Positions 43,901 through 59,048 of a DNA stretch of 64,000 nt are shown in pieces; positions within the stretch are counted from its first letter, which is position 1, and each line of letters starts with the position of its first letter. The DNA is from Escherichia coli. GTDB taxonomy: Bacteria > Pseudomonadota > Gammaproteobacteria > Enterobacterales > Enterobacteriaceae. The DNA is taken from the NCBI RefSeq assembly GCF_009931435.1, contig NZ_CP043414.1. One strand, written 5' to 3'. A program made the translations under genes and the position numbers. A model generated the notes under the pieces. The model made no database searches and was not told where the DNA came from. It saw only the letters and a list, made by a program, of their open reading frames with translations.

Positions 43901-45917
<2,017 letters not shown>

Positions 45918-45949: not shown

Positions 45950-46177
45950 AGAAAAAAGCCAGCAGATAATCACTGCTGGCGTGGCGATTAACACCAATAC
46001 TCAGTCACACATGATGTCCGCAAATCAGTAGTCAGAATGACTCCCCTCCCACTGCATCAGCTCTTCAAGCATGGTTAATCGTTGTGGGACGCTTAACCAA
46101 CGCAACCAGCACAACGTCGCTGTCGCGGTAAAATAGTGCTGATAAAACTGACGTATGGGGCACCTCCTTGCTTCATC
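45950..46177 (-). ncRNA. sgrS: Small RNA SgrS (glucose-phosphate stress)
   Basis: Minus strand begins GATGAAGCAAGGAGGTGCCCCATACGTCAG... and contains the conserved ptsG-pairing seed GTGTGACTGAGTATTGGTG followed by hairpin GCCAGCAGTGATTATCTGCTGGC + U-run; matches remembered SgrS. Ends are approximate. Confidence 0.85.
46025..46156 (-). pseudogene. sgrT: sgrT-homologous reading frame inside sgrS with start codon ATA instead of ATG
   Basis: Frame encodes (I)RQFYQHYFTATATLCWLRWLSVPQRLTMLEELMQWEGSHSDY, homologous to K-12 SgrT (MRQFYQHYFTATAKLCWLRW...); the codon aligned with the K-12 ATG is ATA (plus-strand tat at 46154-46156). No alternative in-frame start nearby. Confidence 0.55.
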
Positions 46178-46244
46178 GTTAGGAATTATTGACTTAATAT
46201 AGGGAAAATAAAATTGCTGACTTTTGCGCAGGAGTTCCCCTTTT

Positions 46245-47900
46245 ATGCCATCTGCTCGTCTGCAACAACAGTTCATCCGCCTGTGGCAATGCTGCGAGGG
46301 TAAATCGCAGGACACAACGCTCAACGAACTAGCGGAGTTATTGAGCTGCTCCCGTCGTCATATGCGCACCCTGCTCAATACCATGCAGGATCGCGGCTGG
46401 CTGACGTGGGAAGCGGAGGTCGGGCGCGGTAAACGCTCACGTTTAACATTCCTCTATACCGGGCTGGCGCTTCAGCAACAGCGAGCAGAGGACCTGCTGG
46501 AGCAGGATCGTATCGATCAACTGGTGCAACTGGTTGGCGACAAAGCGGCTGTGCGGCAAATGTTGGTTTCTCATTTGGGACGCAGCTTCCGCCAGGGGCG
46601 GCACATCCTGCGCGTGCTCTACTATCGTCCGTTGCGCAATCTGCTGCCCGGCAGTGCATTGCGCCGTTCCGAAACCCATATCGCCCGGCAAATCTTCAGT
46701 TCGCTAACGCGCATAAATGAGGAAAATGGGGAACTGGAAGCAGACATCGCCCACCACTGGCAGCAAATATCACCGCTTCACTGGCGCTTCTTTTTGCGTC
46801 CAGGAGTCCATTTTCATCATGGTCGTGAACTGGAAATGGACGATGTGATCGCCTCTTTAAAACGAATCAATACGCTGCCGCTTTATTCGCATATTGCGGA
46901 CATTGTGTCGCCGACGCCCTGGACGCTGGATATCCATCTCACGCAACCGGACCGCTGGTTACCGTTACTGCTGGGGCAAGTTCCGGCGATGATCCTGCCA
47001 CGAGAATGGGAAACCCTCAGTAACTTTGCCAGCCATCCCATCGGCACCGGTCCGTATGCGGTGATCCGCAACAGCACCAATCAACTGAAAATTCAGGCAT
47101 TCGATGACTTCTTCGGTTATCGCGCATTAATCGACGAAGTAAATGTCTGGGTTCTGCCAGAAATTGCCGACGAGCCAGCCGGCGGTCTGATGCTAAAAGG
47201 GCCGCAGGGCGAGGAAAAAGAGATTGAAAGTCGGCTGGAGGAAGGTTGCTACTATTTACTGTTCGACAGCCGCACCCATCGCGGGGCGAACCAGGCGGTA
47301 AGAGACTGGGTAAGCTATGTTCTCTCCCCCACCAACCTGGTCTATTTTGCCGAAGAACAGTACCAGCAACTCTGGTTTCCAGCCTACGGGCTGTTGCCGC
47401 GCTGGCATCATGCCCACCCGACGCATTGCGAAAAACCCGCCGGGCTGGAAAACCTCACCCTGACTTTTTATCAGGATCATATTGAGCATCGAGTGATTGC
47501 CGGGATCATGAAGCAGATTCTGGCAAGTTATCAGGTCACACTGAAAATTAAAGAGATCAGCTACGATCAGTGGCACGAAGGAGAGATCGAAAGTGACATC
47601 TGGCTTAACAGCGCCAACTTTACGCTGCCGCTGGATTTTTCGCTGTTCGCGCACTTGTGCGAGGTGCCGCTGCTCCAACACTGTATTCCGATCGACTGGC
47701 AAGCCGACGCCGCCCGCTGGCGCAATGGCGAAATGAATCTGGCGAACTGGTGCCAGCAACTGGTCGCCAGTAAAGCAATGGTGCCACTTATCCACCACTG
47801 GCTGATCATTCAGGGGCAACGCAGTATGCGCGGTCTGCGTATGAACACCCTCGGCTGGTTCGATTTTAAATCCGCGTGGTTTGCGCCGCCGGATCCATGA
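46245..47900 (+). CDS. sgrR: Transcriptional activator SgrR, 551 aa
   Basis: Track ORF 46224..47900 trimmed to ATG 46245: [44 protein letters not shown]... Confidence 0.93.
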
Positions 47901-47939
47901 TTGCTGGTTGATAACAAAATCACTACACTAACGCCGTTC

Positions 47940-48045
47940 TCAACGGGGTGCCACGCTGCCGCGTGCGCTGAGAAAATACCCGTCGAACCTGATCCGGATA
48001 ACGCCGGCGAAGGGATTTGAGGCTCCTTCTCAAGTCCTTTGCCAC
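47940..48045 (+). ncRNA. TPP (thi-box) riboswitch in thiBPQ leader (SroA region)
   Basis: GGGGTGCCACGCTGCCGCGTGCGCTGAGAAAATACCCGTCGAACCTGATCCGGATAACGCCGGCGAAGGGA read in sequence; contains the conserved CUGAGA and ACCUGAUC...GGGA thi-box elements. Boundaries approximate. Confidence 0.85.
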
Positions 48046-48063
48046 TCTTCTTTGAGGTGCAAA

Positions 48064-57573: not shown

Positions 57574-57578
57574 TTTAA

Positions 57579-57612
57579 GAGAAGCATCTGGGTAACAGGT
57601 GCTTCTTTTTTA
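57579..57612 (+). terminator. Intrinsic terminator after araD
   Basis: AGAAGCATCTG-ggtaac-AGGTGCTTCT (one mismatch in stem) followed by TTTTTTATTAT, 6 nt after the araD stop. Confidence 0.65.
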
Positions 57613-57619
57613 TTATCAC

Positions 57620-58063
57620 TCAGGCAGCAAGAAAAATTTCTGCCCCTATTCCCTCAATTAACAGTGCTTCTAATGAAGGGGCAATATACACCGCATCATC
57701 AAGATCTAAATTACCAAAACCGACGAGATATAAACCAAACCCCTCTTTTCCTTCGGCATAAAAAATCACTTTTCCGCCTTCATCATCGCCAATCGCCAGA
57801 GCGTGTGGAATATAATCCTGAATATGGTATGCGGCATTCATCTCACTACAGCCTGCGGCTCCCCAAATTCTGATATAAGACGTTGAATCCATCACTTTTA
57901 ATTCAACGTCTGCCATCAGAGTAATAAAGGTTAAATACTCATCAGGAATTGCAATGTGAAAATAATTTTTTATAAGTTGACCGAGTCCACTATAATCTAA
58001 TACGGGTTCCCATGACGCCAGCGTGAATTTTTCATGCAATTTAACAATAGGAAACTTACTCAT
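57620..58063 (-). CDS. Hypothetical protein, 147 aa, SUKH/SMI1-KNR4-like (putative immunity protein)
   Basis: Track ORF; ATG start overlaps upstream ORF stop (ATGA). Segments IPDEYLTFITL, ALAIGDDEGGKVIFY, GLYLVGFGNLDLDDAVYIAPSLEALL resemble the SMI1/KNR4 (SUKH-1) pattern. Assignment by eye only. Confidence 0.6.
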   Translation of the reverse strand: MSKFPIVKLHEKFTLASWEPVLDYSGLGQLIKNYFHIAIPDEYLTFITLMADVELKVMDSTSYIRIWGAAGCSEMNAAYHIQDYIPHALAIGDDEGGKVIFYAEGKEGFGLYLVGFGNLDLDDAVYIAPSLEALLIEGIGAEIFLAA

Positions 58064-58407
58064 TTCATCATCCTTTTCTTATACTTCTGGGGTAAAATAT
58101 CCGTTATAACGCCTTCACCTATAAATCCGGCTTCCCACAGCAGAAACTCACTGCCACAGCTGATCCACGGCATTACAAGTTCAGGATTTAAAAACGCCAT
58201 CTCAAGATTGTGTACCATTTCGCCAGGGTGAATCGTTTTTCCATAGCCGTCGATGTAAATCCGGCAGCCATAACCATATGAAGATAACTCATTAATCCCT
58301 TTAAAAAAGACAGGACAGCCGTAAAAACGGTTAGATGATAACAAAGGGCCACGATGCGATTTTTGCGTTGAAGAGTATAGTGTAATGGTAATCCGAACCT
58401 TTCTCAT
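58060..58407 (-). CDS. Hypothetical protein, 115 aa, no recognisable family
   Basis: Track ORF; ATG preceded by GGAGGG SD (minus strand TTCGGAGGGAAGATG); translationally coupled to the downstream SUKH-like ORF (4-nt overlap). Confidence 0.6.
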   Translation of the reverse strand: MRKVRITITLYSSTQKSHRGPLLSSNRFYGCPVFFKGINELSSYGYGCRIYIDGYGKTIHPGEMVHNLEMAFLNPELVMPWISCGSEFLLWEAGFIGEGVITDILPQKYKKRMMK

Positions 58408-58419
58408 CTTCCCTCCGAA

Positions 58420-58752
58420 TTAATTACGCTCTTCAATCAAATATGTCGTTTTATTAGTCCAGGCGATTATTTTATAGGGTCTGTTAATAATACCTTTCTG
58501 CGTATAATCAGCCATAATTTCTGATGGATACCAACCATAACCAAAGCAAAATAAAGCACCTACATTAATAAGCTCACTAATTACACTTAGTTTCTCATTT
58601 TCATTACTGGTATTTTTGCTAAATCGATCATTGTCGGCAGAAAAACCCAACCGTTGCATTTTTTCAACGTTATCATATCCGGTCACTACCGTTTCAATGA
58701 AATTATCACTTATGCTAACCACTATAATACAATCGCTCGGCAGTGTGTTCAT
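58420..58752 (-). CDS. Hypothetical protein, 110 aa, no recognisable family
   Basis: Track ORF; ATG start; 12-nt gap to next ORF; AT-rich upstream region 58753-58975 likely holds the promoter. Confidence 0.55.
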   Translation of the reverse strand: MNTLPSDCIIVVSISDNFIETVVTGYDNVEKMQRLGFSADNDRFSKNTSNENEKLSVISELINVGALFCFGYGWYPSEIMADYTQKGIINRPYKIIAWTNKTTYLIEERN

Positions 58753-58975
58753 TTCCCCTTGATCCTTCTAAAGTCATTTTTTCACCACAACAATGAATTC
58801 AATAGATATAATGAATATATGCAGCCATTTATATATAATTAGCATTACACCCTAATGCCTTAATATAACCCAAACAGAAATCGTCCGATAATCAGAAAAT
58901 GTAATCATTGAATAAAGCAGGAACCTTTTTATCGCATGAGAAACCGAAGATGGTTGATGCCGTTTCGTCAAACAT

Positions 58976-58995
58976 TACTGTACAAAATATCAGTG
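58976..58995. promoter_or_regulatory. LexA-box-like sequence upstream of polB (one mismatch to CTGT-N8-ACAG)
   Basis: TACTGTACAAAATATCAGTG: CTGT-N8-TCAG. polB is a known SOS gene; the K-12 box as I recall (CTGTATAAAACCACAG) is a perfect match, this one is not. Confidence 0.45.
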
Positions 58996-59001
58996 TTCAG
59001 T

Positions 59002-59034
59002 AAAAAACCAGGCTATAATCAAGCCTGGTTTTTT
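59002..59034. terminator. A-run/hairpin/T-run element just upstream of polB (hairpin loop contains TATAAT)
   Basis: AAAAAACCAGGCTATAATCAAGCCTGGTTTTTT; perfect 7-bp stem CCAGGCT/AGCCTGG. Could terminate transcription from either side and/or supply the polB -10. Confidence 0.55.
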
Positions 59035-59048
59035 GATGGATTTTCAGC

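Follow-up and report, generated by a model that had tools for sequence, protein, structure and literature searches.

A natural ATA codon at the sgrT initiator of an Escherichia coli clone with an apparently intact SgrS riboregulator

Introduction

The small RNA SgrS of Escherichia coli K-12 has a dual function: it base pairs with ptsG and manXYZ, and it carries the reading frame of SgrT, a small peptide that inhibits PtsG. What becomes of the second function when the start codon of sgrT is changed in nature and the riboregulator is kept? This question is raised by a 64,000-nt stretch of E. coli DNA (contig NZ_CP043414.1 of assembly GCF_009931435.1), hereafter called the window, in which a first-pass annotation noticed ATA at the position of the sgrT start codon. 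For O157:H7, a natural point mutation has been published that changes the sgrT initiator from ATG to ATT while the riboregulator is kept (PMC2760817, PMC4021124, PMC13293527); no relevant report of an ATA allele of sgrT was found in a literature search. The K-12 allele provides the functional reference. In this strain, removal of sgrT leaves the rescue from alpha-methylglucoside stress unimpaired while base pairing works, and the sgrS2 mutant (TAA in place of the start codon) was tested for rescue beside the wild type, with base pairing found to be the critical function (PMC2760806). In the present analysis, we ask whether the ATA is a real base, on which background it arose, how rare it is, and how much SgrT could be expected from it.

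Results

Identity of the locus and of the sgrT frame

The locus is a full-length match to the Rfam family RF00534 (model positions 1-232 of 232), with 226 bits against a gathering score of 37 and an E-value of 3.7e-64, and it lies divergently beside sgrR, with the SgrS 5' end at 46177 on the minus strand and the sgrR start at 46245 on the plus strand (Table 1). The seed 26-mer CATCATGTGTGACTGAGTATTGGTGT is the same in K-12 and in the window, as the first-pass annotation had said, and this stretch is invariant across all four sgrS alleles aligned. The intergenic stretch between sgrR and sgrS shows 0 differences from the ATG-bearing strain 2013C-4282 and 2 from the K-12 type in the aligned part, and the SgrR protein of the window is the exact sequence annotated as SgrR of E. 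coli. By every feature tested, i.e. covariance match, adjacency to sgrR, seed and terminator, the locus is identified as the SgrS sRNA, and its riboregulatory parts (seed, terminator, promoter region and sgrR) appear to be intact.

Table 1. Positions of the features at the sgrR-sgrS-leuD locus of the window
Feature	Position	Strand	Remarks
leuD	45312-45917	plus	convergent with sgrS; 33 nt from the SgrS 3' end; no setA between
SgrS small RNA, CFT073-type allele	45951-46177	minus	227 nt; Rfam RF00534
Rho-independent terminator hairpin and U tail	45951-45980	minus	Rfam structure and MFE fold
Base-pairing (seed) region for ptsG and manXYZ	45991-46016	minus	26-mer same as K-12
sgrT reading frame	46025-46156	minus	43 codons and stop; translation
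C124 of SgrS	46054	minus	Rfam-consensus partner of the third base of the start codon (model pair 29-129)
ATA at the sgrT initiator (K-12 ATG)	46154-46156	minus	variant base 46154 (G>A)
Shine-Dalgarno sequence AAGGAGGT	46162-46169	minus	6 nt from GGAGG to ATA; read from the sequence
sgrR-sgrS divergent promoter region	46178-46244		alignment with other alleles
sgrR	46245-47900	plus	intact, 551 codons; ORF listing

At the 5' end of SgrS, the minus strand reads GATGAAGCAAGGAGGTGCCCC-ATA-CGTCAG. The comparison with K-12 in the first-pass annotation was borne out by strain 6A (in K-12 coordinates), which reads GGGGGTGCCCC-ATG-CGTCAG and ends in ...EGLMQWDDRNSES; K-12 might itself have had ATA here, and this was checked, the sgrT of strain 6A (77388-77519) having ATG. 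The frame is otherwise open, as had been claimed, and 46156-46025 translates to IRQFYQHYFTATATLCWLRWLSVPQRLTMLEELMQWEGSHSDY*, that is 43 codons and a stop. Residues 2-43 are those of the common CFT073-type SgrT, annotated as 'glucose uptake inhibitor SgrT', and the sgrT of GCA_036246705.1 and GCA_030511265.1, which is the same gene as that of the window, matches PF15894. Thus, the frame is recognized by homology as SgrT, yet a canonical initiator (ATG, GTG or TTG) is missing behind the Shine-Dalgarno sequence, and ATA is found instead.

Other starts within the frame were considered and rejected. There is no in-frame start upstream of the ATA within the SgrS transcript, and the downstream in-frame starts are limited to the TTG codons 15 and 18, before neither of which a Shine-Dalgarno match was seen by eye, and the ATG codon 29, from which only a 15-residue stub would be made. 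Hence, if SgrT is translated from this RNA, translation must begin at the AUA.

A standard allele as background

Compared with the sgrS of E. coli 2013C-4282, the sgrS of the window is one base apart, and this base is the G>A change of the start codon. The first-pass annotation had also described a diverged C-terminus. The tail EELMQWEGSHSDY does differ from that of K-12, but it is the common tail of the CFT073-type SgrT and no divergence of this strain: the exact CFT073-type protein (with Met at position 1) was found on at least 1,000 contigs, it was already given as 'EcCFT' by Horler and Vanderpool in 2009 (PMC2760817), and tails of the same type, EELMQWEGSDSDY and ...DSEY, occur in E. albertii and the cryptic Escherichia clade. 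The two haplotypes also meet in one genome: Escherichia sp. MOD1-EC7003 (391-620) has a mosaic sgrS, with Thr14 and EEL as in the CFT073 type and with the DDRNSES tail, the terminator and the downstream setA as in the K-12 type, which suggests, as far as the alignment goes, that recombination between the two haplotypes fell inside sgrT.

The Shine-Dalgarno sequence likewise belongs to the background. GGAGG prevails in E. coli, with 3,916 of the 5,426 complete genomes, and the GGGGG of K-12 is the minority state, reported for 3 of 15 strains (PMC2760817). In K-12, GGGGG completes the GGGGGTGCCCC hairpin, which was shown genetically to repress sgrT translation (PMC2760806), and the GGAGG state weakens this hairpin. 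As the majority state, GGAGG was rejected as a special Shine-Dalgarno sequence compensating for the ATA. GGAGG goes with ATG at both loci of E. albertii and at two of three loci of the cryptic clade, the third having CGAGG with ATG, and on this distribution ATG with a GGAGG-type Shine-Dalgarno sequence is taken as the ancestral state. The CGAGG locus (GCA_004211985.1, at ∼2490), in which AACGAGG replaces AAGGAGG and ATG is kept, is another natural weakening of sgrT initiation.

No setA or setA remnant was found anywhere in the window by tblastn and blastn. The first-pass annotation had read this as a loss of setA which, together with the ATA, would have pared the locus down to its riboregulatory core. 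In fact, leuD abuts sgrS in every sampled match of the classes with at least 95% identity, which comprise ∼2,156 of 5,399 complete E. coli genomes (∼40%), a share that also has the EEL...SDY tail. The loci read in E. albertii and the cryptic clade have the same layout without setA, in each case with ATG. Every setA-less locus read outside the clone of the window has ATG, with the exception of the O157:H7 locus (ATT). Because both the layout and the tail are widespread together with ATG, a coordinated paring-down is rejected; the absence of setA and the tail are old and shared, and what distinguishes the window is a single point mutation of recent date in an otherwise standard allele.

The ATA in its clone and among complete genomes

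The exact SgrR protein of the window, with E. coli as its annotated source, marks a clone: it was found on at least 24 contigs in 40 index blocks. For two of these contigs the DNA was compared: GCA_036246705.1 and GCA_030511265.1 have 1 and 4 differences from the window in 7,656 bp, and in both the sgrS is identical and has ATA. Since these near-identical assemblies share the base, the ATA is genuine and has become fixed in a tight clone. An error of sequencing or assembly, for which nothing speaks except the rarity of ATA in complete genomes, is refuted for all practical purposes, as the same base stands in three independently assembled genomes (the window and these two) that differ from each other elsewhere.

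The frequency of initiators was determined with 38-nt megablast queries, in which every possible 28-nt seed was forced to include the tested base, in 5,426 complete RefSeq E. coli genomes, a sample from which the clone of the window is absent. A third base G was found in 4,919 genomes and the whole ATG with the exact core CCCCATGCGTCAGTTTTA in 4,986, so that ATG overall is present in at least 4,986. ATT was found in 312 genomes, all matches listed being O157:H7, O55:H7 or relatives, ATA in a single genome (VG1046-3E9) and ATC in none; in ∼100 genomes the locus is present but the initiator is not settled by these queries. For a single SNP a test against chance does not apply, and the relevant figure is the rarity, 1 in 5,426. 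Outside this sample, a metagenome scan for the ATA 29-mer gave no match. Among the GTDB species representatives, a scan with ATN gave Escherichia sp. MOD1-EC7003 (ATG, GGAGG, setA present) as its single match, a result that says little on other species.

Ten other genomic contexts with the LeuD of the window and without setA have ATG throughout. As the frame is otherwise identical to the common SgrT and these ten contexts retain ATG, the G>A change appears to be recent and specific to the clone, on an otherwise standard CFT073-type sgrS allele. We consider it likely, taking the explanation as a whole, that such a change was combined with an intact riboregulator, a strong reduction of SgrT and near-neutrality.

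The clone has no close relative in the complete set: the best complete-genome match to the window shows 98.5% identity over 24 kb and 99.5% over the 381-nt locus. MLST and Clermont markers do not occur in the window. For positions 36000-60000, 23 of the 25 best-scoring complete E. coli genomes listed cover 94%, and two cover 100%. The part missing from the former is presumably a 1.5-kb island of low GC content between araD and polB (57574-59048; 37.6% against 52.4% for the window). This island holds three small minus-strand ORFs of 147, 115 and 110 aa, none of the three with an NCBIfam match; the 147-aa ORF has a weak match to SMI1/KNR4 (SUKH-1), an immunity-protein family (Pfam E-value 7e-4).

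Expected output of SgrT from the AUA codon

Upon glucose-phosphate stress, SgrR would still induce SgrS, and SgrS, with its seed and terminator unchanged, would still repress ptsG and manXYZ. Synthesis of SgrT would depend on initiation at AUA, and IF3 discriminates against this near-cognate codon. In E. coli in vivo, AUA, AUC, AUU and CUG initiate at 1-2% of AUG with a T7-sfGFP reporter and at 0.02-3% with single-copy NanoLuc (10.1101/063800). Because these reporters put AUA at 0.02-3% of AUG, the SgrT output would be expected at a few percent or less of that of the ATG allele, which makes the ATA allele a strong hypomorph or a functional null; the output is probably cut ∼30-fold or more, maybe not to zero.

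Residual SgrT may come from two features of the start region, namely the perfect Shine-Dalgarno sequence AAGGAGGU located 6 nt upstream and the missing G-C pair in the helix by which this region is sequestered. C124 is the Rfam-consensus partner of the G of AUG, and G>A turns this pair into an A·C mismatch; A24 is unpaired in the MFE fold, with a pairing probability of 0.02. Opening of nt 9-36 of SgrS is predicted by ViennaRNA to cost 14.6 kcal/mol with AUA, 16.7 with AUU and 19.3 with AUG, and the 4.7 kcal/mol by which the modelled AUA region is easier to open than the AUG region could offset part of the loss.

These features raise the question whether AUA is a working weak start, giving SgrT at a physiologically meaningful level and possibly tuned by IF3 or growth state in the manner of the AUU codons of infC and pcnB. 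We regard this as unlikely, although it is the alternative that survives best. The Shine-Dalgarno sequence is perfect and well spaced, the inhibitory hairpin of K-12 is weakened in the GGAGG state, and the start region is predicted to open more easily by the above amount. In one in vitro study, mRNA with AUA in an optimised initiation region behaved like mRNA with AUG at 20-40 °C, although AUA, as a non-AUG start, was strongly depressed by nutrient limitation and ppGpp (PMC5499595). In vivo, the reporters place AUA at a few percent at most, and the AUU of infC and pcnB is the sole confirmed non-canonical start in E. coli (10.1101/063800). Moreover, K-12 SgrT was undetected on Western blots even with AUG (PMC2760806). 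For the ATT allele of EHEC, Neuhaus et al. found ribosome coverage on sgrS (RCV 1.55) and argue that ATT behind AAGGAGGT is translated (PMC5331693), but coverage of a structured, Hfq-bound sRNA by ribosomes does not prove that they initiate at this codon. In the NCBI annotation the CDS begins at ATT and at ATA alike, which tracks protein homology and carries no evidence of translation.

Strongly reduced SgrT is thus the reading that we keep. The conclusion of the first-pass annotation, that SgrT is probably not made, is a reasonable one and the same as that published for the O157:H7 ATT allele (PMC2760817, PMC4021124). Since stress rescue in K-12 depends critically on base pairing, a phenotype is unlikely as long as base pairing works, and the G>A change would probably be neutral or nearly so.

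Recurrence of initiator changes and the question of selection

The third base of the sgrT initiator has changed in three lineages, once to ATT (O157:H7/O55:H7) and twice to ATA (the clone of the window and VG1046-3E9), in all cases next to GGAGG. The two ATA alleles have separate origins: VG1046-3E9 carries a K-12-type allele with 30 nt different across sgrS, so its ATA arose independently.

Such recurrence might reflect adaptive convergence, in which lineages de-repressed by GGAGG repeatedly lower SgrT through the third base of the initiator, an excess of PtsG inhibition being costly in their niche. The three lineages (312 genomes with ATT, the clone with ATA, and VG1046-3E9 with ATA) are indeed separate, all three share GGAGG, and in all three the ORF is still open. 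On the other hand, three events in thousands of lineages are not clearly above neutral homoplasy; similar or commoner SNPs occur in the same 38-nt stretch, where 101 genomes have one mismatch and ∼100 are not settled; GGAGG is merely the majority background; and the ATA allele is absent from the metagenome scan. Because of the majority background and of other SNPs at least as frequent in the stretch, the case for selection is not made. The recurrence at the third base leaves some room for selection over drift, which on these comparisons we hold to be improbable.

Editing of the initiator A

One further possibility is that TadA edits the A of the initiator, which stands in a U-A-C-G context, to inosine, so that AUA is read as AUG and SgrT depends on editing. 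If true, the start codon would be made post-transcriptionally in a bacterium and SgrT synthesis would be conditional on editing. The G>A change does create UACG with A at the edited position (CAUACGU), which is the four-base core of TadA (PMC5630033, PMC12255301), and inosine is read as G by ribosomes (PMC12255301). Any G>A at this position yields UACG automatically, as codon 2 is CGU. The known editing sites in bacterial mRNAs need YUACGAA in a hairpin loop resembling tRNA-Arg2 (PMC12255301, PMC5630033), whereas the heptamer here is AUACGUC, with 4 of 7 positions matching; sites that deviate by 2-3 bases make up 5% of those known, and in hokB and trpD single substitutions were enough to abolish editing (PMC12255301). 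In the predicted full-length fold the A is moreover an internal mismatch within a long helix, and in the local fold it is paired; in neither does it lie in a hairpin heptaloop. With the core present and the extended motif and the loop absent, editing is mostly rejected and we consider it very improbable.

Discussion

The window presents an sgrS locus in which a G>A change at the sgrT initiator, real and fixed in its clone, is otherwise a single neutral-looking SNP on a standard allele. If SgrT is lost in this clone, the clone would be a second natural experiment after O157:H7, in which the SgrS riboregulator is kept and the PtsG-inhibiting peptide is dropped. [quoted passage not shown]

The annotation of these alleles deserves attention in its own right. 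In VG1046-3E9 (NZ_CP128594.1, 3032-3034), the RefSeq CDS starts at the ATA under accession WP_001248770.1, the same as K-12 SgrT, and O157:H7 records annotate sgrT from the ATT, with the usual RefSeq product name 'glucose uptake inhibitor SgrT'. Because automatic annotation calls sgrT from ATT or ATA, initiator mutants are invisible in protein-level comparisons. A different case is a 45-aa SgrT variant (HBB6599551.1 / HHV1393373.1), annotated as MPHASVYQHYF..., which seems to reflect the loss of 1 nt from the TTTT run that follows codon 3, with the gene call moved to an upstream GTG, and would be another natural disruption of the sgrT N-terminus.

Among known systems, the allele of O157:H7 and O55:H7, described by Wadler and Vanderpool in 2007 and by Horler and Vanderpool in 2009 (PMC2760817), is the closest. 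Like the window, it has a mutated third base of the initiator on a CFT073-type backbone with GGAGG, leuD abuts sgrS without setA, the ORF is open, and seed and terminator are intact. The mutated base is T there and A here, the two sgrS are 3 nt and the two SgrR 15 aa apart, and among the complete genomes ATT is present in 312 whereas the clone of the window is not represented. The start region of the O157:H7 allele is also predicted to be costlier to open (16.7 kcal/mol for AUU against 14.6 for AUA; ViennaRNA). Next to sgrR, O157:H7 carries an espY2 insertion, which the window lacks: in O157:H7 F7386 (560-1129), the type III effector gene espY2 lies between sgrR and the thiB TPP riboswitch, while in the window the riboswitch is at 47934-48033 and the stretch 47900-48050 is without the insertion. 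As judged from these comparisons, the window holds a second, independent allele of the O157:H7 kind, in another lineage and with another base.

E. coli 2013C-4282, of the CFT073 type, has the same SgrT, Shine-Dalgarno sequence and setA-less layout and a 227-nt sgrS one base off, but its initiator is ATG and its flanking genes are 2.3% diverged. K-12 shares with the window the dual-function sRNA beside sgrR, the seed 26-mer and the first 30 residues of SgrT except for K14T, and differs in ATG, the GGGGGTGCCCC hairpin, the tail DDRNSES, the terminator loop and the downstream setA. VG1046-3E9 has the same ATA and GGAGG, with 61 nt around the start identical, yet on a K-12-type allele with setA.

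Further afield, the SgrS homologues of Yersinia without sgrT likewise keep the riboregulator and have lost the peptide function (PMC4021124), a loss that for the window would follow from the initiator. The Yersinia RNAs have a truncated 5' part and no ORF, whereas in the window the ORF is complete and the initiator alone is changed. The IF3-sensitive AUU codons of infC and pcnB resemble the AUA of the window as near-cognate AUN initiators behind a Shine-Dalgarno sequence; theirs are conserved and experimentally confirmed, and that of the window is a recent, rare polymorphism known from sequence.
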